Positions 4,117 to 64,000 are shown, counted from the first letter of the stretch. The stretch is DNA of 64,000 bases from Deltaproteobacteria bacterium (GCA_003973265.1 QNYZ01000036.1:3434-67433); one strand, 5' to 3'. The notes: a model not told the origin generated them from the letters alone. Program-made: numbers and translations.

Positions 4117-4970
4117 GGGGTTCCTCCTTCGGTAGGTGTCCATTGTATCCGGTTTTCATTCATCCCCAGCCCGGCCGGTGCGATGCCCAGCGCAAGGCCC
4201 AGCAGCTGCGGATATAAAACCGCGGGGATCGGCGGGGCATGCGGAAGGGTTTCCAACCGTACCTGATCGAATTGATGCTGACAATAGGTGCAGGCCGTGC
4301 AGATCATATCCGCCCCGGCCTGATCGGCATCCTCGATTTTTTTCTGCATCAGCCGGGTCGATATTACGCGGTTTTTTTCCCACAGGGGCGCTCCGCAGCA
4401 GTTGAGCCGCAGGGGCCAGTCAACGGCCGTGGCACCGGTTACGGCAATCAGGTCTTCAAAAATCGTTGGTGCCTGGGGATCGTCAAACCCGACAATATTA
4501 GCCGGCCGCAGGGCATGGCAGCCGTAATGAGCGGCAACCCGGATGTCCTTTTGAGGGTGAACCACGGCCGTGGCGACAGCAGCCAGGCCGAGGTCCTCCT
4601 TTAATACCTGCAGAAGATGCCGGACCCGGATGCCCGGTTTCCAGCGCAGATTTTCTTTTCTCAGGATCGCGTTGACCCGGCGGCGCAGCACGCGGTTTTC
4701 CCCGAGCCAGTACTGGGCATGCCGGAGGTTTCCATAGCAGCACTGGCACGGCGTCATCAGCGGTGCGCCGATCTGATCGGCCAGCGCCAGGACCCGGGCC
4801 GAGGATAATAACGACGCTTCCAGATGCTGATGCCGGACGGGATAGCCGCAGCAGTTGAATTCAGAATCGACCAGATCGATGCCGAGCGCTTTAAATATCC
4901 CGCGCGTGGCGCGGTCATAGGCCGGCAGCCAGGCCGGAATTTTACATCCGGGAAAATAGACATATTTCAT
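4113..4970 (-). CDS. HdrB-like / GlpC C-terminal-like protein with two CCG cysteine-rich domains
   Basis: 285 aa. Two CCG motifs ([16 protein letters not shown]), each with accompanying Cys clusters ([15 protein letters not shown]). Start and stop overlap both neighbouring genes. Confidence 0.8.
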
Positions 4971-6706
4971 GGGGCGGCCTCCGGGGCTTCCTCTTTCGGC
5001 CGGTGGGAAATCGATTGCGAATCCAGGTGATGAACGGTGTCAGGATAAAACCGCCGGTAGGCGATATTTCTCAATTCATAGAGGACGTCGGCCACCCGGA
5101 CGCCCTGGGGGCAGTGTTCCTGGCACATATAGCAGGTGACGCAATTCCACACCATCCGTGCGCCCAGAGCATCGTCGGCCATCTGAAGGCGCAGCAGGTT
5201 CATAATCTGCTGGGGCGTCAGGTCGAGTTCCCGGGCCGGATCGTCGGCGGCTTCCACCACCGGGCAGACCGTTGTGCAGATCGTACACTGGATGCATCCC
5301 CTGAATGTTTCCGGCCGGTCGGTCAGATGAATTGCCGGAAAGGTTTTCTTGAAAGACGGCCCGGATGCGACCGATCGTTCCGACGCCAGGTGTGCCCATT
5401 CATGGGCCGGCTTTTTCATGATCCAGTGGTGGGCCTCGGTAAATCCCTGTCGCCGCAGGTCCTGCTTCGATGCCTGCCAGATATCTTTCAAATCGATTCC
5501 CGACGGGCAGACCTCCGTACAGCGACCGCAGTCGGTACAGATGAAGCTGCCTTCGGCCAGGAGCGCGGCCTCGGCCTCAGATCCGTGCCGGTGGCGGACA
5601 TGACGTGCGAACCCGGCCAGTTTTTCCGATGGCAGAATGGTGATGTTGTCGATCAGTAACTGGATGGGAGCTACCTTGCAGTGCAGGCTGCAAATGCCGC
5701 AATGGGTACATGCGTCCAGCCCAAGCGCACGTCGGTTGGCCAGCTGGGCGGGGGAAACGGTATCGGTAGTACGGCTGCCGCAAATCAGCAGGTTGACCGG
5801 TGTGGCAATCAGATGGAAAAATTTGCCGAACGGCAACCAGGCCAGGGCGGCAAAGGCGGACAGGAAATGGATATACCACAGCCAGGTATCCATACGAATA
5901 CGGTTAAAGCGCCGGGCCACCGGCCGGATGAACCGGGCCACGGGATAACTCATAAAAGCTGATACCGGGCGGGAATGACAGGAAATGCAGTATTCGTCGT
6001 GCGTTTCATACCCCTCGGCAAGTACGGCCGGATCGTCGGTGTCGACCGGGTTTTCAAAAACCACCCCGTATTGGGACGCCCAGTACGCCCGGAGCGGGGC
6101 CAGTATTTCCTCGTCGTCTTCGTCCAGGTACTCGTCCACCATCTCGTTGAAGATCGGTTCCGAAACGATCTGGACGGCCTCAAGCATCATACCGGAAACA
6201 ATGACCATACCGATGAAAAAAAGGGTAAAGGTATCCATGGCGCGGGTCATCTGGCGCAGCCGATGGCCGGCCACCCGGCGAATCATCGCAATCCCCGCCC
6301 CGGCCAATACCATCAGCCCGAATAGATCGCGGAGCCACAAAAAGGGGTTGAGCGTCGATTCATAATCCGGAAAAAAAGTACGCGTCAGCGGATCGTCGAG
6401 GGCATGCATCAGAATCAGCAAGATCATTCCGTAAAACAGGCAGATATGCATAATCCAGCGCCAGAAGCTCTGGTGGAGGATATTGAGCTGCAGCAATACG
6501 TCGGTAATAAATATGCCGATCAGCTTGAAAACCCGGCGGCTGACCAAGGCGCGAATCGTCTGGCCGGTGGCAGCCGTGATTCGGGCGCCCACGGTCAGGG
6601 TATCGGTTTCCGGGCCGATGCGGAGGGTTACCCATCTTTGCGTCCGGAAAAGGATGCCTGCCACACAAATCCCCAGCGCCAGATATAGTGAAATGGTAAA
6701 TATCAT
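4967..6706 (-). CDS. Membrane-integral cytochrome-b-like (NarI/HdrE/DsrM-type) domain fused to a poly-[4Fe-4S] ferredoxin (HdrC-like) domain
   Basis: 579 aa. The N-terminal half has ~5-6 hydrophobic helices with conserved His (WRWIMHICLFYGMILLILMHALDD, WYIHFLSAF, FFHLIATP). The C-terminal half carries four Cys cluster motifs: CTHCGICSLHC, CTDCGRCTEVCP, CIQCTICTTVCP and CVTCYMCQEHCP. Confidence 0.7.
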   Translation of the reverse strand: MIFTISLYLALGICVAGILFRTQRWVTLRIGPETDTLTVGARITAATGQTIRALVSRRVFKLIGIFITDVLLQLNILHQSFWRWIMHICLFYGMILLILMHALDDPLTRTFFPDYESTLNPFLWLRDLFGLMVLAGAGIAMIRRVAGHRLRQMTRAMDTFTLFFIGMVIVSGMMLEAVQIVSEPIFNEMVDEYLDEDDEEILAPLRAYWASQYGVVFENPVDTDDPAVLAEGYETHDEYCISCHSRPVSAFMSYPVARFIRPVARRFNRIRMDTWLWYIHFLSAFAALAWLPFGKFFHLIATPVNLLICGSRTTDTVSPAQLANRRALGLDACTHCGICSLHCKVAPIQLLIDNITILPSEKLAGFARHVRHRHGSEAEAALLAEGSFICTDCGRCTEVCPSGIDLKDIWQASKQDLRRQGFTEAHHWIMKKPAHEWAHLASERSVASGPSFKKTFPAIHLTDRPETFRGCIQCTICTTVCPVVEAADDPARELDLTPQQIMNLLRLQMADDALGARMVWNCVTCYMCQEHCPQGVRVADVLYELRNIAYRRFYPDTVHHLDSQSISHRPKEEAPEAAP

Positions 6707-9979: not shown

Positions 9980-10840
9980 ATGAATCAGGTTCCGGAAAAA
10001 CGGGATCGGGATAATCCTGAGACAGCCCCGACTTCTCCGATTATGCTAAATGGCCGCCAGGCACCGGTTCGGCAGCGGCAGCAGGCAATTTTGAAACTCG
10101 TTCGGGATAAGGGATATGTAACCAACGAATCGTTGGCACGCCATTTTTCGGTGACCCCCCAGACCATTCGGCGCGATATTAATTCCCTGTGCGACAACGG
10201 CTGGCTGCAGCGCTACCATGGGGGCGCCGCCCCCGCGTCGAGCATTGAAAACGTGGCCTATAACGACCGGCGGATTATCTGCCTGGAAGAAAAACAGCGG
10301 ATCGGCGAGATGGTGGCTGCTCAGATTCCCGAAAAAGCCTCGCTTTTCATCAATATCGGCACCACCACTGAAGAGGTGGCCAAAGCGCTTTGCGGCCACC
10401 GCCACCTGCGGGTAATTACCAATAATATCAATGTGGCGGTTATTCTCAGCAAAAACGAAGATTTCGATATCATGGTCACCGGTGGAAAGATTCGCAACCG
10501 GGATTGCGCCCTGTCCGGCGAGGCCACCGTCGATTTTATCCGGCAGTTCAAGGTCGATTACGGGATCATCGGTATCAGTGGGATCGATTCGGACGGCTCG
10601 CTGATGGATTTCGATTATGGCGAAGTTCGGGCAGCCCGGACGATCATCGACAACTCGCGCCGGGTATTCCTGGTGGCCGATCATACCAAGTTCGGCCGCA
10701 AGGCCATGGTGCGTCTGGGCAATATGACCGAAATTGATGCCTTGTTTACCGACCGGGAGCCACCGGTACCCGTGGTGAAGATGATGAAAAACGCCGGCGG
10801 GCAGATCTATACAATCGAAAAATTGCCCCGGGGAAAATAG
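9980..10840 (+). CDS. glpR: DeoR-family glycerol-3-phosphate regulon repressor
   Basis: HTH region RQQAILKLVRDKGYVTNESLARHFSVTPQTIRRDINSLCDNGWLQRYHGGA followed by a DeoR C-terminal sensor domain. AAGGA lies 9 nt upstream of ATG 9980. An alternative start is ATG 10043. Confidence 0.85.
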   Translation: MNQVPEKRDRDNPETAPTSPIMLNGRQAPVRQRQQAILKLVRDKGYVTNESLARHFSVTPQTIRRDINSLCDNGWLQRYHGGAAPASSIENVAYNDRRIICLEEKQRIGEMVAAQIPEKASLFINIGTTTEEVAKALCGHRHLRVITNNINVAVILSKNEDFDIMVTGGKIRNRDCALSGEATVDFIRQFKVDYGIIGISGIDSDGSLMDFDYGEVRAARTIIDNSRRVFLVADHTKFGRKAMVRLGNMTEIDALFTDREPPVPVVKMMKNAGGQIYTIEKLPRGK

Positions 10841-10855
10841 CGATAAAGAACATTC

Positions 10856-10893
10856 AGGGATTAATATTTTCGCTTGCGAAAATATTAATCCCT
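10856..10893. promoter_or_regulatory. Perfect 18-bp inverted repeat between glpR and the glycerol-type ABC operon (candidate GlpR operator)
   Basis: AGGGATTAATATTTTCGC-tt-GCGAAAATATTAATCCCT. It is AT-rich and lacks a following T-tract, so it is unlikely to be a terminator. Confidence 0.6.
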
Positions 10894-23485: not shown

Positions 23486-23513
23486 TTGACATTCCGGCCG
23501 TATCCTTTAATAT
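23486..23513 (+). promoter_or_regulatory. Sigma-70-type promoter of the arsR-permease operon
   Basis: TTGACA (23486-23491), a 16-nt spacer, then TAATAT (23508-23513). The -10 element lies inside the operator palindrome. Confidence 0.6.
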
Positions 23514-23547
23514 ATGAATAAATGTTCATATATTAAAGGATACGGCC
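23496..23547. promoter_or_regulatory. Perfect 23-bp inverted repeat, a candidate ArsR/SmtB operator
   Basis: GGCCGTATCCTTTAATATATGAA-taaatg-TTCATATATTAAAGGATACGGCC, abutting the ATG of the arsR-family gene. The core TGAA-N6-TTCA resembles SmtB/CzrA-type operators. Confidence 0.7.
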
Positions 23548-52096: not shown

Positions 52097-52349
52097 TATT
52101 TTCCTAAGACCGATCCTCCCTTCGCTGTCAGGGAGTAGATGTGTCGATCCGGTTTGCTCTCTTTTGTTTTTCAACCGACCGGGTGGCCAGTTCCTGATCG
52201 GCCAATCGTTTGAGAATCGGGTAAATTTGGCCGTAACTCCCGTTCCGGAAATTGCCGGTAATTTTTTCAAATTTCTTCATGATATCATAGCTGGACACGG
52301 CCCCCATGCCAAGCAGGCCCAATACGGCGTATCTGCTGTTTTCTCTCAT
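52097..52349 (-). pseudogene. PadR-family regulator with an apparent frameshift near the wing
   Basis: The track ORF (52128-52349) reads MRENSRYAVLGLLGMGAVSSYDIMKKFEKITGNFRNGSYGQIYPILKRLADQELA...KRANRIDTSTP*. The conserved wing/C-terminus continues in another frame (IYSLTAKGGSVLGK*, compare the PadR RKYYSLTEKG), with the shift near 52140. Confidence 0.5.
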
Positions 52350-52486
52350 CGTTTGTTTCCAGGCGTAATTATATATCTAAACAAGATCTATCTTTAAGAT
52401 ACAGATAGCGATTGATTTTGTCACGGTTATATTCAGGTGGTATCTTTTGATCCATCGCCATCATTTAAGGAAATAACAATTACAAT

Positions 52487-52528
52487 TATTTGCGCATATC
52501 AGCCACATATTGATGATATGCGCAAATA
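52487..52528. promoter_or_regulatory. Perfect 15-bp inverted repeat: candidate enhancer (UAS) for a sigma-54 activator, or a PadR operator
   Basis: TATTTGCGCATATCA-N12-TGATATGCGCAAATA, with a third half-site ATTTGCGC at 52533-52540. The centre is ~118 bp upstream of the -24 GG. Confidence 0.55.
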
Positions 52529-52623
52529 TCTCATTTGCGCCGATGATCAACCGCCGAGTAGAAGCAAGCATCCGGGCAGACATTATCGATGTTTCAGTAC
52601 AACGGGCATCATTCAGAATTTTC

Positions 52624-52638
52624 TGGCACGGTGTTTGC
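52624..52638 (+). promoter_or_regulatory. Sigma-54 (-24/-12) promoter
   Basis: cTGGCACGgtgtTTGCg gives GG-N10-GC spacing and matches the consensus YTGGCACGrNNNTTGCW at every specified position except the final W. It lies ~125 bp upstream of ATG 52763 on the same strand. Confidence 0.75.
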
Positions 52639-52762
52639 GTTCAGATGGGTGAACAGTTACCTCCTGCGCCTGCCGGCCAACCACCCGGAGCGGCCCACTG
52701 AGCCCGGCAAAATTTTGAGGGTGGATTGATTGGCATTTTGACGAGATTCTGAATGAGAGCTG

Positions 52763-53281
52763 ATGATGGAAAATTCAAAGCCGGACGATAAAAAAGAGCG
52801 GAGAAAGTCCCCCCTGGAAAATATTAACGGCCAGGTTTTCGAAAAATACAAAGAAGTGTTGAAGCGATTGCCCGACATCGGTCCGGTTTTGATGCTTTAT
52901 ATGCAGTCGGGTCACCGAAAATTTAACTTTATCAGCGATCTGGAATGGCTTTTGCTGCCGCCATTGATGCTGAAACAATGTAAATTGTATACGGAAAAGG
53001 GATTTCCAGTCAGCTATATTTCATGGGCCTTTCTCAATGAAACGGTAGAAAAACGTCTGATCAAGAACTGCGGCCGACTGTCGCCGGAAGACTGGAAATC
53101 CGGAAGCCGGTTGTGGTTGATTGACGTGGTGGCGCCGTTTGGCGGGGTTGAGCGAATGCTGGCCGACATCCGATTCAATCTTTTTCCGGATCGGCCTGTC
53201 CGGATTCTGGCCCGGGATCCGGCCACCGGTGGTGTCCACCTTCGAGAGTTGCCAATACCTGCAAAAAAGGAAGCAGATTGA
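52763..53281 (+). CDS. HlyC/RtxC-family toxin-activating lysine acyltransferase (orphan)
   Basis: 172 aa aligning by eye along E. coli HlyC: SGHRKF (HlyC PLHRNW, catalytic His), FPVSYISWAFLN (YPVAYCSWANLS), EDWKSGSRLWLIDVVAPFGG ([20 protein letters not shown]). Confidence 0.85.
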   Translation: MMENSKPDDKKERRKSPLENINGQVFEKYKEVLKRLPDIGPVLMLYMQSGHRKFNFISDLEWLLLPPLMLKQCKLYTEKGFPVSYISWAFLNETVEKRLIKNCGRLSPEDWKSGSRLWLIDVVAPFGGVERMLADIRFNLFPDRPVRILARDPATGGVHLRELPIPAKKEAD

Positions 53282-53411
53282 GGCCGCGGGCGTGACAGGA
53301 ACAGGCGGAAAACAAACCCAAGGGGCTATTGGCAGATCCTGGGCAGGCCGGGGTTTTCCCGGTGTAATTATTGATCACCCTCTTTGGCGGGCGGGCTGGA
53401 AAATTTCAAAA

Positions 53412-54572
53412 TCATCCCAGCAGATCCAACGCGGTTCGGCAATACATTTCAACACCCGTGGCCAGGATTTTTTCGTTAAAATCAAACCGGGCGTTATGGA
53501 TGGGCGATCCATTTTCACGGCCGGTTCCCAGGCAGAAGAAGCATCCCTTTGATCGTTCCAGGAAATAGGCCATGTCTTCGGCACCCATGGATGGGTTTGG
53601 TACAAGGGTCTGCTCTTTTCCCACGGTTGCCTCGGCACACCGACGTACCACCCTTGTCATTTCCGGATCGTTGATTAGCGGCGGGAATCCTTTTTCGAAC
53701 TTAAACTCGTATTGTGCATCCATGGCATTGCAGATTCCGGCAATAATCTTTTCGAGCCGCGAAGGCCAGGAATCCCAGACCTCTCGATCAAAGGTCCGCG
53801 TCGTGCCGCTCATCGTGGCGGTGTCGGGGATAACGTTAAATACAGTACCCGCATGAAAACTGCCCACGGTCACCACGGTCGGCGTGAGCGGGTTTATATG
53901 CCGGCTGGTAATTCGTTGAAGGGCGCCCACGACCTGACAACCGATCTCAAGGGCATCGACACACTGGTGGGGATAGGCGCCGTGACCGCCTTTGCCGATA
54001 ACAGTCAAATCAAATTGATCCATGGCAGCCATTAATACCCCGTCGCGCACGCCGATGGTCCCTTCCGGAATATCGGGCCAGACATGACATCCCACAGAAT
54101 AATCAACGGCCGGGTTTTTCATCACACCTTCCTCGATCATCGGCAGAGCGCCACCCGGCCCTTCCTCGGCCGGTTGAAAGACAAACCGGACCGTCCCGGA
54201 AAGCTGATCAGACAGCTCACAGATAATCTTTGCGGCGGTCAACACCATCGCCATATGCGCATCATGCCCGCAGGCGTGCATCACGCCATCATTCGTGGAG
54301 GAAAAGGGCCGGCCCGTCTTTTCGGTGATGGGCAGGGCGTCCATATCGGCCCGGATAAGCAGGTTTAACCCCGGTCTGCCGGTATCGAGAAATCCGACCA
54401 CGCCATACCCGGCAATGCCGGTTCGAAGGTCAAGCGGTAATTTATTCAGACAGTCGGTGACATACGCAGCCGTTTTTTCTTCGGAAAAGGCCAGTTCCGG
54501 AATACGATGCAAAAACCGACGATGCTCGACCACTTTCGACAGGTTTTTTTGGGCGATTTGTTTAATATTCAT
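53412..54572 (-). CDS. M20D-family amidohydrolase (aminoacylase / hippurate hydrolase-like)
   Basis: HRRFLHRIPELAFSE, IRADMDALPI and GVMHACGHDAHMAM. GGAG lies before ATG 54572. The track ORF's 5' extension overlaps the ABC ATPase gene. Confidence 0.8.
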   Translation of the reverse strand: MNIKQIAQKNLSKVVEHRRFLHRIPELAFSEEKTAAYVTDCLNKLPLDLRTGIAGYGVVGFLDTGRPGLNLLIRADMDALPITEKTGRPFSSTNDGVMHACGHDAHMAMVLTAAKIICELSDQLSGTVRFVFQPAEEGPGGALPMIEEGVMKNPAVDYSVGCHVWPDIPEGTIGVRDGVLMAAMDQFDLTVIGKGGHGAYPHQCVDALEIGCQVVGALQRITSRHINPLTPTVVTVGSFHAGTVFNVIPDTATMSGTTRTFDREVWDSWPSRLEKIIAGICNAMDAQYEFKFEKGFPPLINDPEMTRVVRRCAEATVGKEQTLVPNPSMGAEDMAYFLERSKGCFFCLGTGRENGSPIHNARFDFNEKILATGVEMYCRTALDLLG

Positions 54573-54595
54573 GGTAACTCCAATGATTCCTGTTA

Positions 54596-55639
54596 TTAAA
54601 AACGATTTTCTTCCACCGCATGACAGGCGACGCGGCGGTTTTTCCCGTCTGCCCGTAACATCGGTACTTCTCTTAAGCAACGATCATTTTTCAATTGGCA
54701 GCGGGGATGAAAGGTACACCCGCTGGGCGGATTCAGCGGGTTGGGAATTTCGCCCTGAACCGGCGACCGGGTGCGTCCGGTCATCAGGATATCAGGAATG
54801 GTATCGAATAGCAGCCGGGTATAAGGATGCCGCGGATGATCGAACAGCTCATCCGCCGGGGCAACCTCACACAGGCGGCCCAGATACATTACACCCACCC
54901 GGTGGGCCATGTGGCGCACGACGGCCAGGTCGTGAGAGATAAATAGATACGACAAACCCAATTGTTCCTGAAGATCTTTCATCAGGTTTAAAATCTGGGC
55001 CTGGACGGAGACATCCAGCGCCGAGGTCGGTTCGTCACAAACAATAAAATCAGGCTCACTGGCCAGAGCCCGGGCAATGGAAATACGCTGCCGCTGGCCA
55101 CCGGAAAATTCATGAGGAAATTTATCCCCGTCCCGGGCGGTCAAACCGACCTGGCGCAGCAACTCGGCAGTGCGAGTTAAAACAGCCTCTTTTTTCTGAA
55201 GCAGGCCAAACGCCCGGATCGGCTCGCTCACAATCCGGGTAACTCGCCAGCGGGGATTTAAACTGGCATAGGGATCCTGAAAAATCATGGCCATGCGGCG
55301 ACGCAGCTTCAGCGCTTCGGATCGGTCCGCCAGGGAGGCCATATCAATACCGTCAAAGTAGATCTTCCCGGCGGTAGGGGTATAAAGCCCTACGACCATA
55401 TAGGCGACCGTTGATTTGCCGCATCCAGACTCGCCCACCAGAGCGAAGGTTTCTCCCGAATTGATAGAGAAAGCAACGCCATCTACGGCCTTTAAAAATT
55501 GACGGGGAATCCGTTCAATTAAACGGTTCATAAAGGGTTTGGATACATCAAAGCGGCACTTCAGGCCGGTGGCTTTCAACAGCGGTTTTGTGTCGGTTAC
55601 GGGCATCGACTTTTCATTCGGGTTGATGGGTGTCATCAT
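54596..55639 (-). CDS. Peptide/nickel-type ABC ATP-binding protein (DppF/OppF-like)
   Basis: Walker A GESGCGKST, FSGGQRQRI, FIVCDEPTSALDVS and a C-terminal oligopeptide-ATPase extension (GCTFHPRC). An alternative start is ATG 55606. Confidence 0.85.
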   Translation of the reverse strand: MMTPINPNEKSMPVTDTKPLLKATGLKCRFDVSKPFMNRLIERIPRQFLKAVDGVAFSINSGETFALVGESGCGKSTVAYMVVGLYTPTAGKIYFDGIDMASLADRSEALKLRRRMAMIFQDPYASLNPRWRVTRIVSEPIRAFGLLQKKEAVLTRTAELLRQVGLTARDGDKFPHEFSGGQRQRISIARALASEPDFIVCDEPTSALDVSVQAQILNLMKDLQEQLGLSYLFISHDLAVVRHMAHRVGVMYLGRLCEVAPADELFDHPRHPYTRLLFDTIPDILMTGRTRSPVQGEIPNPLNPPSGCTFHPRCQLKNDRCLREVPMLRADGKNRRVACHAVEENRF

Positions 55640-56603
55640 AAAGCCAGCAGGCCACCTGGACAGGGCCGTTTTTGATTAAGTTCGGTCGTTTTTCCCGACA
55701 AATGGCCATACACTTCGGACAGCGGGGATGAAATGCACACCCGCCGGGGATGTCAGTTAATCGCGGCATGTTGCCGTCAATCTGGACCAACCGCGATTGA
55801 TGTTGATGAAGCGACGGAATGGCATTCATCAGCCCCCGTGCATATGGATGGGTCGCTTGTTTCACAACCCGCCTTACCGTGCCGACTTCTACTAACCTTC
55901 CGGCATACATCACCGCTACGCGATCCGCAGTTTCGGCGATGACCCCCATGTCGTGTGTGATAAGAATAACAGCTGCCCCGTACTCGGCGCACAATTGCTT
56001 GAGCAGGGCGATAATCTGGGCCTGGATGGAAACATCGAGTGCCGTGGTCGGCTCGTCTGCAATAATCAGCGCGGGATTTACGCAAAGCGCCAGGGCAATA
56101 ACCACGCGCTGACGCATCCCGCCGGAAAATTGATAGGGGTAATGGTCTATTCGACTTTCCGCCGCCGGAATGCCAACTTCTTCCAGCAGGTGGACGGCGT
56201 GCGAACGGGCCCTGGAAGCAGACATATCGGTATGAGTCTGGATCGTTTCCACCAGTTGCTGGCCGACGGTATACAGCGGATTCAGGCTGGTGAGCGGGTC
56301 CTGGAAAATCATCCCGATCTGTTTGCCCCGGATTTTCCGCATCTGGGCATAGGGCAAATTGTCTATCCGGCGGCCGCTTAAAGCGATATGGCCAGCGGTG
56401 ATGTGGCCGGGGGGTTCCAGTAGCCCGATAATGGCCTGCCCGGTCAGAGATTTTCCGGCGCCCGATTCTCCCACGATGCCGAACACCTCTCCGGGAGCAA
56501 TGGCAAAAGAAATATCTTCTACGGCGACCAAAGGCCCCCTTCGGGTGGCAAATTCGATGCGGAGATGGTCAACGGTGAGTAGTGGTACTGTCATCCCCGT
56601 CAT
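55614..56603 (-). CDS. Peptide/nickel-type ABC ATP-binding protein (DppD/OppD-like)
   Basis: GESGAGKS, FSGGMRQRV, LIIADEPTTALDVS and GCAFHPRCP. Confidence 0.85.
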   Translation of the reverse strand: MTGMTVPLLTVDHLRIEFATRRGPLVAVEDISFAIAPGEVFGIVGESGAGKSLTGQAIIGLLEPPGHITAGHIALSGRRIDNLPYAQMRKIRGKQIGMIFQDPLTSLNPLYTVGQQLVETIQTHTDMSASRARSHAVHLLEEVGIPAAESRIDHYPYQFSGGMRQRVVIALALCVNPALIIADEPTTALDVSIQAQIIALLKQLCAEYGAAVILITHDMGVIAETADRVAVMYAGRLVEVGTVRRVVKQATHPYARGLMNAIPSLHQHQSRLVQIDGNMPRLTDIPGGCAFHPRCPKCMAICREKRPNLIKNGPVQVACWLYDDTHQPE

Positions 56604-57565
56604 CTTAGTTTCGGGTTAAGCGCATCGCGCAGCCAGTCGCCCAGCAGGTTCACGGACAATACCAGTACCGCCAGGAAAATGCTGGGAAAAATCGTAATCC
56701 ACCATTCACCGGAAAATAAAAAATCGTTTCCAATCCGGATAAGCGTTCCCAAGGATGGCTCGGTGGGCGGCACCCCGACGCCAAGAAAAGAGAGCGTGGC
56801 CTCGGTGATGATTGCCACGGCCAGATGGATGGTGGCAATAACCAATACCGGCCCCATAACGTTGGGAAGGATATGACGCCACATAATTAAACCCGGCCGG
56901 ATACCGATGACCCGGGCAGCCTGGACATATTCCTTGTTTTTTTCCACCATCGTGGAACTTCTCACCGTCCGGGCGTATTGGACCCAGCCGGAGATCCCGA
57001 TGGAAAAAATTAAGACACTGACCGAGAGTCGTTCCACATCGGTACCGGGGATCATGGTGCGCATGATTCCATCTACCAGAAGCGCAATTAAAATAGCCGG
57101 AAAACTGATTTGAATCTCGGCGACCCGCATGATGACGGCATCCACTGTACCGCCGATATACCCGGATATCACGCCCAGGCTGACACCGAGCGTCAGAGAA
57201 AAGATCACGCTTGAAAACCCCACCAGAAGAGAAATACGTGAACCGTAAAGAATGGCAGAAAAAAGATCGCGTCCCTGATCGTCGGTTCCCAGCATATAGC
57301 GGCTGTCACCTCCGGCATCCCAGGCCGGGGGAATATGGGAATCGAGCAGGTCGAGGCTGGCCATATCAAAGGGGTTTTGGGGGGCAATCCATGAGGCACC
57401 TGCAGCACTGATAAATATCAGCAACGTGATGATGGATGCAATGATGGTTATCGGTGACTGTCGGTAGGAATAAAAGATATCACCATCAAAGAAACGTTTC
57501 AGGGTGTCGGTCAGGCGATGCCACCGGGTGGGCGCAAGGGAATTCGTCGGCACTGGTTTATGCAT
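56600..57565 (-). CDS. Peptide ABC permease (DppC/OppC-like)
   Basis: Polytopic. Contains GTDDQGRDLFS and EYVQAARVIGIRPGLIMWRHILPN. ATG 57565 overlaps the upstream stop by 8 nt. Confidence 0.85.
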   Translation of the reverse strand: MHKPVPTNSLAPTRWHRLTDTLKRFFDGDIFYSYRQSPITIIASIITLLIFISAAGASWIAPQNPFDMASLDLLDSHIPPAWDAGGDSRYMLGTDDQGRDLFSAILYGSRISLLVGFSSVIFSLTLGVSLGVISGYIGGTVDAVIMRVAEIQISFPAILIALLVDGIMRTMIPGTDVERLSVSVLIFSIGISGWVQYARTVRSSTMVEKNKEYVQAARVIGIRPGLIMWRHILPNVMGPVLVIATIHLAVAIITEATLSFLGVGVPPTEPSLGTLIRIGNDFLFSGEWWITIFPSIFLAVLVLSVNLLGDWLRDALNPKLR

Positions 57566-58547
57566 GTCCACCTGCTCTGCCCATATCAACCCGCAACCGG
57601 GGATCGACCACATAATACAGAATATCAACAATCAGGTTGATCACTACAAAAAAGAATGCCACCAGAATCAGATAGGCAGCCATGATGGGGATATCCACAT
57701 TGTGAATCGCCTGGAGAAACATCAGCCCCATACCGGGCCACTGAAAAACCGTTTCGGTAATAATGGCAAATGCAATGATCGATCCGAGCTGGAGCCCCGT
57801 GATGGTAATAACCGGGACCAGCGTGTTTTTCAGGGCATGGCCGAAATGAATGGCCCGGTCGGTGAGTCCTCGCGCCCGGGCAAACTTGATGTAATCGGTC
57901 CGGAGGACCTCGAGCATTTCCGAGCGGACCAGTCGCATGATCAGGGTCAATTGAAACAGGCCCAGGGTCACGGCCGGCATGATCAGCGCTTTCAGACCGG
58001 TTTGGGTCAGCAGGCCAGTGGTCCACCAGCCCAAGTGAACCACATCCCCCCGGCCATACGACGGCAGCCATCCAAGGATCACGGCAAAAATAAAAATCAG
58101 GAGAATCCCGATTAGAAAGGTCGGCAGCGATACGCCCACAAGGGAAAAAGCCATAAAGAGCCGGCTGAGCCATCCCTTGGGCTTTAATCCCGTATATACA
58201 CCCATGGGCAGCCCGATCACCAGGGCCAGAAACGCCGCCACAAAGGAGAGCTCCAGTGTCGCCGGTAATCTTTCCTTAAAAAGCTCGGTAACAGGTCGCT
58301 TGTGCTGGTAGGAGAGGCCAAATTCTAACCGGGCGGTATTGCCCACAAACCGGATGAACTGGACGACCGCCGGGTCATTTAAGCCGAGATCTTCACGCAG
58401 TTTTGCCCGCTCAGCAAACGAGGTTTCAATCCCCACCATCTGGTGAACCGGATCACCCACATAATTAAACATGAGGAACGCCACCATCGCCACGAAAAAC
58501 ATGACAACCAGGGACTGGATCAGTCTGCGGATAATGAATGCGAGCAT
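57558..58547 (-). CDS. Peptide ABC permease (DppB/OppB-like)
   Basis: MLAFIIRRLIQSLVVMFFVAMVAFLMF... and DYIKFARARGLTDRAIHFGHALKN. Confidence 0.85.
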   Translation of the reverse strand: MLAFIIRRLIQSLVVMFFVAMVAFLMFNYVGDPVHQMVGIETSFAERAKLREDLGLNDPAVVQFIRFVGNTARLEFGLSYQHKRPVTELFKERLPATLELSFVAAFLALVIGLPMGVYTGLKPKGWLSRLFMAFSLVGVSLPTFLIGILLIFIFAVILGWLPSYGRGDVVHLGWWTTGLLTQTGLKALIMPAVTLGLFQLTLIMRLVRSEMLEVLRTDYIKFARARGLTDRAIHFGHALKNTLVPVITITGLQLGSIIAFAIITETVFQWPGMGLMFLQAIHNVDIPIMAAYLILVAFFFVVINLIVDILYYVVDPRLRVDMGRAGGHA

Positions 58548-58701
58548 ATGTCAGGCCAGAAATAATACCCGTTCGGGTATTGAGCTTTAAGTATCGCCAG
58601 CAGATCCAACCGCATCCGCCGGTTCAACAGGCCGTGCCGGAACACCCGTCAACAATATTGAACAGGTTGCCGGCAACGGCATATTCAGGGGGAAAAACGG
58701 C

Positions 58702-60294
58702 TTATTTAACCGTCACATAATAAAGCATAAACTGGTTATCGGCCCGCTGGACCAGGTTGATATTGTCCTTTTTACCCCAGGCCAGCGCCTGCTGATGAAG
58801 GGGGATATAGCCGATATCGTTGTTGAGAAGCTCGTAGGCTTCCTTGATCATCTGGTTCCGCTTGTTTAGATCCGTTTCGCTCAGGATTTGGTCGGTCAGC
58901 TCATCGATCCTGACATTGGCGTAACCGCCCAGGTTGAATTTTCCCCGACCGGATTCCTTATCGCGGCTGTCGATCAGATTGTAGAGGACATTGTAGCTGT
59001 CAAAACTCGACGGCGTCCATCCCAGCAGATAAAACTCAGTATCATAGGCCAATACTTTCTTAAAGTATTGTGCCTTGGGCTGGGCTTTCAGGTTTACTTT
59101 TACACCAACTTTAGCCAGCATGGAGACCACTGCCTGGCAGATCTGTTCGTCGTTCACATAGCGATTATTGGGGCAGTCCATACATAGATTAAAACCATCC
59201 GGATATCCGGCCTCGGCCAGTAGTTTTTTAGCGGCCGCAGGATCGTAGGGCAGCCGTTTGAAATCCTTGCCAAACGGCTGAAACAACTTGGGCGATATCA
59301 TGATCGCCGACGGTTCACTCAGACCCCGCATGATTTTTTTCTTGATGGCATCGATATTGATCGCCTGGTAAAAAGCCTGGCGCACCCGCTTGTCTTTTAG
59401 CGGATTTTTCCCTTTAATATTGGAACACTTAAGCTCGTCATCCGCCTGGTTGAATCCCAGAAAAATCGTCCGCAGTTCCGGGCCGGACAACACCGATGTG
59501 CCTGGATGGTCGTTGACCCGCTTGATGTCCTGAACCGGTACCGGATACATCATGTCGATTTCGCCGGACAGCAGGGCTGCAACCCGGGTGGCATCTGAAG
59601 AAATGGGCGTAAAAATGACTTCGGTGAGATTGTGTTTGGGTGTATCCCACCATCCATCAAACGGCTTCATGACCGTCTTTACATCGGTTTGTCTTTCCGT
59701 GATGACAAAAGGACCGGTTCCATTTTCATGACGGGTGGCATAATTCTCTTTACCTGATTTTATGTTGGTCGATTCAACAGCGTCATTTTTTTCACACCAC
59801 TCCTTGTCCATCATGTACCAGGTGGACCATTCGGATATCAGGATGGGATTGGGTTGGGTGGTAATAAAATCGACGGTATAATCATCGATCTTGACGACTT
59901 CCTTGATCGTGGATACCCGGGTTTTGAAATCAGACCCCTCGGACCGGGTTCTTGCGACGGTGAATATCACGTCATCCGCATTAAAATCATTACCGTTATG
60001 AAATTTAACCCCTTTGCGCAGGTAAAAGCGCCAGCGGGTCGGCTCCACCATTTTCCAGCGCTCGGCCAGGCACGGCTCGGTTTTCAGATCCGGTCCTCTT
60101 CGAACCAGCCCTTCGTAGACGTTGCCAAGAAAACCGATCAGAAATGTTTCATTTAAAGAATGGGGGTCCAGGGAATTGGCATCCCCCTGGAACGCCCACT
60201 TAAAAGTTTTAGCTGAGGCCGAGCCGGGAAATACCGTCAGCGCCAATCCGACAACCAGAACGGCCGTCATGAGCAGCAATAGCTTTTTTCGCAT
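58702..60294 (-). CDS. Family 5 (peptide/nickel) ABC substrate-binding protein
   Basis: 530 aa with signal peptide ...VFPGSASA, an AAAGGAGG RBS, and the typical SBP_bac_5 length and pattern (RWKMVEPTRWRFYLRKGVKFHNG). Confidence 0.85.
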   Translation of the reverse strand: MRKKLLLLMTAVLVVGLALTVFPGSASAKTFKWAFQGDANSLDPHSLNETFLIGFLGNVYEGLVRRGPDLKTEPCLAERWKMVEPTRWRFYLRKGVKFHNGNDFNADDVIFTVARTRSEGSDFKTRVSTIKEVVKIDDYTVDFITTQPNPILISEWSTWYMMDKEWCEKNDAVESTNIKSGKENYATRHENGTGPFVITERQTDVKTVMKPFDGWWDTPKHNLTEVIFTPISSDATRVAALLSGEIDMMYPVPVQDIKRVNDHPGTSVLSGPELRTIFLGFNQADDELKCSNIKGKNPLKDKRVRQAFYQAINIDAIKKKIMRGLSEPSAIMISPKLFQPFGKDFKRLPYDPAAAKKLLAEAGYPDGFNLCMDCPNNRYVNDEQICQAVVSMLAKVGVKVNLKAQPKAQYFKKVLAYDTEFYLLGWTPSSFDSYNVLYNLIDSRDKESGRGKFNLGGYANVRIDELTDQILSETDLNKRNQMIKEAYELLNNDIGYIPLHQQALAWGKKDNINLVQRADNQFMLYYVTVK

Positions 60295-62747: not shown

Positions 62748-64000
62748 ATGGATCGATTCAACACAAGCAGTATCTCCGATTTCAGTAAATGGGTGGAAGA
62801 AGCTGGAAACGGCGTGGTCATGATTGACCATCGCGGGATGATCATGGTTTTCAACCGCATTGCCCGAAGACTGCTCGGTAAATCTCTTGTCAACCCTGTG
62901 GGTCGTTTTATCAAGGATATTTTTCCTGATTCATGGGATGATCTAAAAAATATTCTAAGCAGTGGTCAGGCCCAGATCGCCAAACGGGTGGAGTTCGAAA
63001 ACGGCACCATTATCGCCAATCGGACGCCGATTATGGAAAAGGGTCGACCCGTGGGCGTGCTCAGCATTTTTCAGGATATTGGCGAATATGAACGCATCCT
63101 GACACAGCTTGAAGCCTACAAGCAACTGAATGAGGAACTGAACGTCATCATCAACTCTTCCTATGATGGACTCTGGATTTGCGATCACGAGGGGAAAGTT
63201 ATCCGGGTCAACCGTGCCTCTGAAAAAATGAGCGGACTCAAGCAGTCGGATGTACTGGGAAAAAAGATGGAAGAGCTGGTACAAGAGGGTTTTTTTGACA
63301 AATCTGCCACCCTGGAAGTGCTAAAGCTCCGTACGGCCGTAACCCTCATCCAGAAAATCAAGGGGGGGCGGCATGCCATGGTAACGGGCAACCCCGTGAA
63401 AGATGCGGAGGGAAATATTCGCCTGGTCGTGGTAAATGCCCGGGATATTTCCGAGTTGAACCGCCTGCAGGCGGAACTCGAACAAAGCCGTCAGCTCAAC
63501 TATCAATACAGTTCCGAACTCAACCACCTCCATCGCTACCAACACCAGCATGCCAAGGTGATCTTCCGTAGCCCGATCATGAAACGTATCTTTGAAACTG
63601 CCATGCGCGTGGCCCGGGTGGACTCCAGCGTGCTTATCTCTGGCGAATCTGGCGTTGGAAAAGGACTCTTTGCAAAACTGATTCACGAGGCCTCCAGCCG
63701 GGCCGATGCCTCGCTGATTCATATCAACTGTGGCGCCATACCGGAAACCCTGATTGAGGCAGAACTTTTCGGATATGAAAAGGGGGCTTTTACCGGTGCC
63801 TGCACCCGTGGCAAACCCGGTTATTTCGAAATGGCTGACGGTGGAACCCTTCTGCTCGATGAAATTGGAGAACTGCCCCTCAGTGTCCAGGTAAAACTGC
63901 TCCAGTTTTTAGAGGACAATCGCTTCATGCGAATCGGTTCGACCCAAACACGAAAGATCGACACCCGTATTATTGCCGCCACCAATCGCGAACTGGAAGA
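62748..64000 (+). CDS. Sigma-54-dependent transcriptional activator with two N-terminal PAS domains; the 3' end runs off the window
   Basis: Absent from the track because it is open at the edge. Manual translation from ATG 62748: MDRFNTSSISDFSKWVEEAGNGVVMIDHRGMIMVFN... (PAS), ...SYDGLWICDHEGKVIRVN... (PAS), then the AAA+ core VLISGESGVGKGLFAKLIH and ELFGYEKGAFTGA (GAFTGA). Confidence 0.85.
   Translation, partial: MDRFNTSSISDFSKWVEEAGNGVVMIDHRGMIMVFNRIARRLLGKSLVNPVGRFIKDIFPDSWDDLKNILSSGQAQIAKRVEFENGTIIANRTPIMEKGRPVGVLSIFQDIGEYERILTQLEAYKQLNEELNVIINSSYDGLWICDHEGKVIRVNRASEKMSGLKQSDVLGKKMEELVQEGFFDKSATLEVLKLRTAVTLIQKIKGGRHAMVTGNPVKDAEGNIRLVVVNARDISELNRLQAELEQSRQLNYQYSSELNHLHRYQHQHAKVIFRSPIMKRIFETAMRVARVDSSVLISGESGVGKGLFAKLIHEASSRADASLIHINCGAIPETLIEAELFGYEKGAFTGACTRGKPGYFEMADGGTLLLDEIGELPLSVQVKLLQFLEDNRFMRIGSTQTRKIDTRIIAATNRELE

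Follow-up and report, generated by a model that had tools for sequence, protein, structure and literature searches.

Toxin-activating acyltransferases (TAATs), including HlyC, CyaC, ApxC and RtxC, are lysine acyltransferases of ~170 residues that share a Pfam family (PF02794), a GNAT-like fold and a catalytic dyad. Genes of the classical members are found beside those for the substrate and for secretion, as in hlyCABD, or, in the case of cyaC, in divergent orientation. The His/Asp catalytic mechanism of TAATs has been described (PMC8510554), and CdiC, whose dyad is His37/Asp107, lipidates CdiA, a non-RTX substrate, in contact-dependent inhibition (PMC8510554). Here, we report an analysis of a TAAT gene located on a stretch of 64,000 nucleotides assigned to a Deltaproteobacteria bacterium (GCA_003973265.1, QNYZ01000036.1:3434-67433; hereafter the window, with positions counted from its first letter). 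Its product has the family, the fold (template modelling (TM) score of ~0.69 to the ApxC structure 4WHN), the dyad and the length in common with these enzymes, whereas the gene is unlinked to substrate or secretion genes in 64 kb and has a predicted sigma-54 promoter of its own. The features at the center of the analysis are as follows.

52763..53281, + strand: TAAT (HlyC/RtxC/ApxC family) lysine acyltransferase gene, 172 residues (171 if the start is at 52766)
52624..52638, + strand: sigma-54 (-24/-12) promoter core cTGGCACGgtgtTTGCg, the sole exact TGGCAC-N5-TTGC match in the window
52487..52528, no strand assigned: 42-bp dyad, proposed upstream activator site, with arms TATTTGCGCATATCA (52487-52501) and TGATATGCGCAAATA (52514-52528) and a 12-nt spacer

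In the explanation that we favor, a functional TAAT gene dependent on acyl-acyl carrier protein would have left its ancestral position in a type I secretion system (T1SS) operon and become a single-gene transcription unit in an uncultured Desulfobacterota lineage. Transcription may start from the sigma-54 promoter, activated by an enhancer-binding protein that would bind the 42-bp dyad through two near-palindromic 12-mers at ~ -156 and -128. The enzyme may then modify, in trans, a giant cadherin-like protein that is secreted by a T1SS and encoded at another locus of the genome, in which case lipidation of the giant protein would depend on a signal and would be uncoupled from the synthesis of this protein. 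Taken as a whole, this chain, from displaced functional TAAT through sigma-54/activator control to action in trans on a T1SS giant protein, has in our estimate an even chance of being correct. Dependence on RpoN, binding of the activator, its identity, the existence of a partner locus and the substrate are the steps that we infer.

Profile, alignment and structural model identify the gene product as a genuine TAAT whose His/Asp dyad is intact and for which acylation activity is predicted. The PF02794 profile (HlyC, RTX toxin acyltransferase family) matched the open reading frame (ORF) over profile positions 2-117 of 127 with 122.4 bits (E 1.4e-35; the curated cut-off is 25 bits). The 172-residue protein also matched the sequence of ApxC (E 1.3e-13), which to our knowledge is the sole TAAT-family member with a solved structure (4WHN). 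In this alignment, SGHRKF stands opposite LHRKW, and LWLIDVVAPFGG stands opposite the corresponding 12-residue ApxC segment. An AlphaFold model of the protein, built from 25 homologues (predicted local distance difference test score of 83), superposed on the chains of 4WHN with TM scores of 0.68-0.70, a root-mean-square deviation of 2.1 A and an E value of 4e-11; the structural matches that came after 4WHN were weak GNAT matches only. The dyad is composed of His51, located in SGHRKF and aligned with the HRKW motif of ApxC (ApxC His24), and Asp121, located in WLIDVVAPFG and invariant across the 25 homologues in the alignment. The initial annotation had recognized an HlyC-type acyltransferase with a conserved catalytic His context and a WxIDxxAPFG core, and had proposed a family profile search and superposition on ApxC as checks. 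Family, fold and both dyad residues agree with this assignment, and both motifs align with ApxC.

Only two close relatives were present in the protein collection, a strain variant of 99% identity and an orthologue of 79% amino acid identity on a 1-kb contig (L015). The latter also precedes the 3′ end of a convergent M20 gene and is therefore a second orphan. Comparison of the window gene with L015 gave a ratio of nonsynonymous to synonymous substitutions (dN/dS) of 0.128 at dS 0.97. This ratio implies strong purifying selection and thus a functional orphan gene, and the value of dS places neutral sites near saturation. The possibility that the acyltransferase gene is a decaying remnant is ruled out by the dN/dS of 0.13. 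The second ATG, at 52766, is the likelier start codon because of its Shine-Dalgarno spacing and because ATGAGAG and the second ATG are conserved in L015.

The acyltransferase gene is the single + strand gene of the interval 52350-53411, and its two neighbors are oriented away from it or toward it as follows.

52128-52349, - strand: padR-family gene, divergent from the acyltransferase gene
53412-54680, - strand: M20 peptidase gene, convergent with the acyltransferase gene

No T1SS gene, RTX protein or giant repeat gene was detected in the 64-kb window by Pfam annotation, which covered essentially all large ORFs, and a tblastn search of the window with T1SS proteins revealed no T1SS gene either. 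Linkage of the acyltransferase to a substrate gene and to T1SS ATP-binding cassette (ABC) and membrane fusion protein (MFP) genes, which characterizes classical rtxCABD-type loci, is thus absent within 64 kb. The same orphan context was observed in the contigs L006-L009 and in L015. The earlier description of a monocistronic gene, convergent with an M20 gene and with no substrate in sight, holds on all these counts.

The 413-bp intergenic region between padR and the acyltransferase gene carries the predicted promoter, on the strand of the acyltransferase gene. The core TGGCACGgtgtTTGC (TGGCAC-N5-TTGC), with its -24 GG at 52625-6 and its -12 GC at 52637-8, has one exact match in 64 kb, compared to 0.14 expected. 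Its extended form, CTGGCACGgtgtTTGCg at 52623-52639, reads CTGGCACG-N4-TTGCg and fits the extended sigma-54 consensus that we used (YTGGCACG-N4-TTGCW) except for the last W. Sites with no more than one mismatch to this extended consensus numbered four in the window, with five expected, and the other three were without further support. In L015, the core is retained as CTGGCATG-N4-TTGC (CTGGCATGtttaTTGCt in the corresponding position), although its flanks have diverged. The near-consensus sigma-54 promoter proposed at 52624-52638 therefore stands, as the unique exact match and as a site kept in the orthologue, and it is predicted from these features to work through RpoN. Two further elements lie between the promoter and the gene.

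52650..52765, + strand: predicted 5′ untranslated leader of ~116 nt, with its start placed from the -12 GC
52756-52760, + strand: GAGAG Shine-Dalgarno sequence; ATGAGAG and the second ATG are conserved in L015

Rfam gave no match in the upstream and leader region. An 11-nt perfect inverted repeat, TCATTCAGAAT at 52609-52619 and ATTCTGAATGA at 52746-52756, flanks the sigma-54 core and the Shine-Dalgarno region. This repeat was considered as an element and rejected, as it is not conserved in L015 and is probably due to chance.

The arms of the upstream dyad are 15 nt each and 100% complementary. Each arm contains a near-palindromic 12-mer, AT(T/A)TGCGCA(T/A)AT, and the dyad also lends itself to a reading as two dyad sites at a spacing of 28 bp, with arm centers at ~ -156 and -128 from the predicted transcription start. 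The center of the dyad lies 117.5 bp upstream of the -24 GG in the window and 112.5 bp upstream in L015. Upstream activator sites of NtrC-type activators are classically located at this distance from a -24/-12 promoter. Only three perfect inverted repeats with arms of at least 15 nt and a short spacer occur in the window, with a chance expectation of ~0.002 by our own arithmetic. No other copy of the dyad was found in the window; the sole dyad-like match near the candidate activator gene described below (63077) had three mismatches and was located inside the coding sequence.

Conservation of the dyad was assessed by comparison with the orthologue and with strain contigs. The dyad is 34/42 identical in L015, against a background of ~50% for the upstream region, and the spacer itself is identical at 10 of its 12 positions. 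GCGC is replaced by GATC in both arms of L015, which amounts to two compensatory pairs or, equally, to the same change in four half-sites. In the strain contig L008, one C-to-T change in arm 1 gives a G:T pair. The dyad, the promoter, and ATGAGAG with the second ATG form three conserved islands upstream in L015. Because these islands stand amid an upstream region whose neutral sites are saturated, there is good evidence from the comparison that the promoter and the dyad are both functional. Evidence for how the dyad works is weak; a protein site composed of two dimer sites would most simply explain the fourfold identical change together with the conserved spacer. The claim of a perfect 15-bp repeat centered ~118 bp upstream was borne out, in contrast to that of an accompanying third half-site.

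52533..52550, no strand assigned: "third half-site" ATTTGCGCCGATGATCAA, 83% complementary to arm 2

L015 does not conserve this element, and even the near-identical L008 has GTAC in place of its GCGC. By these comparisons, it is probably not functional.

The genomic context of more distant relatives was informative about the origin of the orphan state. Among homologues of 49-64% identity with readable context, all ~30 Desulfobulbales loci were inside T1SS operons. The usual gene order was C39-ABC, HlyD/AprE-type MFP, TAAT and TolC-type outer membrane efflux protein (OEP), that is, ABC-MFP-TAAT-OEP. Among them were loci of Desulfopila sp. IMCC35008, Desulforhopalus sp. 52FAK, D. singaporensis, Desulfofustis glycolicus, Desulfocapsa and many metagenome-assembled genomes (MAGs) of Desulfocapsaceae and Desulfobulbaceae. 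Where the flank was long enough, a protein of 2000-3300 residues composed of Cadherin_4, Cadherin_5 and Big_9 repeats adjoined the operon. A C-terminal module of ~200 residues, rich in DxDxDG-type motifs, is common to the giant proteins, and no RTX nonapeptide repeats were detected by Pfam in the one giant protein scanned.

In a neighbor-joining tree, the orphan clade grouped with the in-operon L010, either inside the Desulfobulbales clade or at its base; T1SS-linked homologues of greater distance fell outside the grouping of orphan and Desulfobulbales sequences. Since close relatives are embedded in T1SS operons and T1SS-linked outgroups lie outside, the orphan state is derived, and by parsimony the ancestral partner would be a T1SS-secreted giant protein. 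A scan of GTDB representatives with the TAAT alignment yielded 29 loci, none above 63% identity. The GlpK protein encoded in the window is closest to those of Desulfobacterales-labelled MAGs (77-78%), which places the organism in a broad group where T1SS/giant-protein loci are common. The likeliest target of the enzyme appears to be a cadherin-like giant protein encoded elsewhere. The initial annotation had framed the gene as part of a lipidation system whose target is unknown, in an organism with no record of RTX toxins. The solitary position of the gene agrees with this framing, which is nevertheless weakened by the T1SS context of ~30 relatives. That context points to a displaced rtxC-like gene, a scenario that the annotation had itself listed against its proposal.

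Two observations were made on other TAAT loci. In L046-L049, the MFP encoded directly after the ABC gene has only 195-206 residues, corresponding to the beta-barrel part alone, compared to 460-535 residues elsewhere; this suggests a lineage with a degenerate or rearranged secretion system that still keeps its TAAT. HlyC-family genes of 40-41% identity were also detected in a Rhodospirillaceae MAG (L042) and in Arenibaculum pallidiluteum (L043), at ~10001-10380 of these loci, with no T1SS ABC or MFP gene within 10 kb on either side. Glycosyltransferase, SRAP peptidase, EamA transporter and PBP1 genes are among their neighbors. TAAT genes without such linkage thus occur in other phyla as well.

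Several results weigh against the reading of a displaced, sigma-54-controlled TAAT that acts on a T1SS giant protein. With regard to the substrate, no invariant lysine or conserved Gly-Lys site was found in the C-terminal module among 12 giant proteins, and the TAAT substrate is therefore only putative even in the relatives. A partner T1SS/giant-protein locus for this organism was not found by following four ABC homologues, namely P0082-P0084, which are closest to L010, and P0175, from a MAG labelled "Deltaproteobacteria bacterium" at NCBI. All of them came from other samples and other lineages; three of the four had a TAAT of their own in the operon, and the contig of the fourth (L053) was too short. 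With regard to control, the exact pattern TTTGNNCATATCA-N12-TGATATGNNCAAA had no match in JGI metagenomes; the JGI strain contig L008 misses this pattern owing to its C-to-T change in arm 1. A metagenome scan with ATTTGCGCATNTCA-N{100,130}-TGGCAY-N5-TTGC gave one match, which was judged to be due to chance as it lay within the coding sequence of a phage-like contig. Likewise, a comparable sigma-54 site with the motif was absent at 19 of 20 T1SS loci of relatives. The dyad is represented by only four distinct sequences, and the observed covariation was reached in 24 of 500 shuffles. From one orthologue to the other, the spacing of dyad and promoter changes by 5 bp or half a helical turn, which speaks mildly against strict helical phasing. 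Finally, the symmetric changes in the dyad would fit a hairpin or templated arm-to-arm repair as well as a protein site.

The single relative with a comparable site was L018, from an uncultured Desulfopila MAG (CAYTVF010000007.1). At 1427-1561 of this locus, a sigma-54-like sequence TGGCATACTATTTGC (TGGCAT-N5-TTGC) is preceded, 120 nt upstream, by ATTTGCGCATcTCAG, which matches arm 1 at 14 of 15 positions. The sigma-54-like site lies 107 nt before a Sulfatase-family gene of 724 codons, and 38 nt separate this gene from the T1SS ABC gene behind it. A rough estimate puts the probability of this coincidence at ~0.002, for one case among 20 operons, and the site is suggestive of a link between the motif and a T1SS operon. 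A further sigma-54 match, in Desulfopila sp. IMCC35008, was rejected because it was inside a 16S rRNA gene. This gene lies just upstream of the T1SS operon (L001, ~4700-5600), and its universal segment GCTGGCACGGAGTTAGCC mimics the sigma-54 -24 element in pattern scans. In the literature, the motif string matched nothing but primers and unrelated sequences.

A different view of the enzyme is that of a truly stand-alone lipidation system, which has no T1SS/giant-adhesin partner and in which the TAAT acylates something else, for instance a protein of the envelope or a different secreted protein. The lack of any T1SS or RTX gene in 64 kb would fit such a system, as would the stability of the orphan arrangement, which has been kept under purifying selection in two lineages dS ~1 apart. 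Non-RTX substrates of TAATs are documented (CdiC acting on CdiA, PMC8510554), two alphaproteobacterial HlyC homologues (L042 and L043) have no T1SS in the 10 kb to either side, and the giant proteins of the relatives show no conserved lysine in their C-terminal module. However, the closest homologues examined are embedded in T1SS operons, and an absence over 64 kb says little about a genome of several megabases. Moreover, no alternative substrate is conserved beside the gene, and retention of the M20 gene is expected from ordinary synteny between sequences that have diverged to this extent. On balance, we consider a stand-alone system unlikely. We are more doubtful still of its fullest form, a free-standing lipidation system of an anaerobic sediment bacterium that is switched by a signal through sigma-54, is directed at a new class of targets and has no T1SS/giant-adhesin partner.

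The dyad, for its part, could serve something other than a sigma-54 activator. PadR-family proteins bind inverted repeats, and the dyad is part of the 413-bp region between the two divergent genes, at 138-179 bp upstream of the start codon of padR; it might thus be an operator for a repressor or a sigma-70-type regulator, for example PadR, acting on padR, on the acyltransferase gene or on both. Yet padR is frameshifted in the window strain (73 residues versus 99 in L009) and the dyad is nonetheless perfect, and the sigma-70-like padR promoter (52396-52424) overlaps inverted repeats nearer to padR (52379-52417) that are better candidates. The dyad also does not overlap the sigma-54 core and lies at the classical activator distance in both orthologues. 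The ATGT-N8-ACAT type of PadR operator is not apparent in the sequence. An operator is thus possible but less likely than an activator site, and we would give it only a minor share of the probability. The dyad could also act as a nucleic-acid structure, either a cruciform or a leader stem-loop in a longer transcript from an upstream sigma-70 promoter. The predicted hairpin (-16.5 kcal/mol, z-score -4.0) is in line with this idea, pairing survives all internal changes in the stem (two compensatory pairs and, on the + strand, one G:U), and a weak sigma-70-like site is present upstream at 52418-52446. But no T-tract follows the stem, Rfam does not recognize it, and the conservation of the 12-nt loop in L015 is not needed for a simple loop. 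As GCGC and GATC are self-complementary and four half-sites changed alike, a protein site for a dimer of dimers is more economical, and the four distinct sequences and the shuffles mentioned above make the covariation a poor argument for pairing. A structural role of the dyad is, in our judgment, quite improbable, and an activator site of two dimer sites remains the preferred reading.

A gene for a possible activator is present at the end of the window.

62748..64000, + strand: candidate activator gene, PAS-PAS-AAA+ sigma-54 enhancer-binding protein with a GAFTGA motif, running off the window

Presence of this gene implies that the organism has RpoN. The initial annotation had noted a sigma-54 activator gene nearby with no link to the site; the gene was confirmed, and nothing in the sequence of the window ties it to the dyad. 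In L008, whose acyltransferase is 99% identical, a ~5.7-kb operon for an opp/dpp-type peptide ABC transporter between two M20 peptidase genes is missing (window 54596-60294 versus L008 952-3295), and the sigma-54 activator gene is thereby ~3.5 kb from the acyltransferase gene.

Other features of the region concern neighboring genes and repeats. Relative to the strain contig L009, padR has a 2-bp (CT) insertion near 52160, which accounts for the difference between 73 and 99 residues. The insertion is present in three assemblies of one sample (the window, L006 and L007) and is probably a real strain-level frameshift. The two other long inverted repeats of the window are both intergenic. They are located at 23496-23547 (23-nt arms, 6-nt spacer) and at 10856-10893 (18-nt arms, 2-nt spacer), one after an ion-channel gene and the other between genes for a DeoR regulator and an ABC transporter, and are likely terminators or operators.

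Comparison with known systems places the locus as follows. The operon TAATs of Desulfobulbales are the closest relatives outside the orphan clade (49-64% identity), belong to the same length class and group with it in the tree. However, they are internal to operons, and only one of 20 has a sigma-54 site with the motif, whereas the window gene is solitary and has a promoter of the sigma-54 type. CdiC has the same His/Asp dyad and, in class IV CdiA systems, represents a TAAT co-opted for a non-RTX substrate (PMC8510554). Its gene lies between cdiB and cdiA, which makes the substrate obvious by linkage; the window gene is without a linked substrate. With respect to control, NtrC-type promoters such as glnAp2 likewise combine a -24 GG/-12 GC element with two dyad sites ~110-160 bp upstream, a resemblance of position. 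In the window, by contrast, a single perfect 42-bp palindrome is made up of the two sites, whose spacing is 28 bp, and the activator is only a candidate.

The literature searched seems to hold no description of a TAAT under sigma-54 control: a 2026 review of RTX regulation does not mention RpoN or sigma-54, and a full-text literature search for HlyC together with sigma-54 returned nothing relevant. If our explanation is correct, a sigma-54 activator that senses a signal would govern the acylation of a secreted giant protein independently of how this protein is made and exported. Such a layer of control is not described for TAATs in the same literature. In addition, a whole clade of TAATs in the sulfate-reducing Desulfobulbales (L001-L005, L010-L035, L039 and L046-L052) is part of operons that serve the secretion of giant cadherin-like proteins rather than pore-forming toxins. 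Enzyme, promoter and enhancer layout each belong to well-known kinds, and both unlinked and non-RTX TAATs have precedents; the locus is therefore a useful lead but no surprise. It is a regulatory and organizational variant, in which known parts occur in an unusual arrangement, and not a new kind of system.

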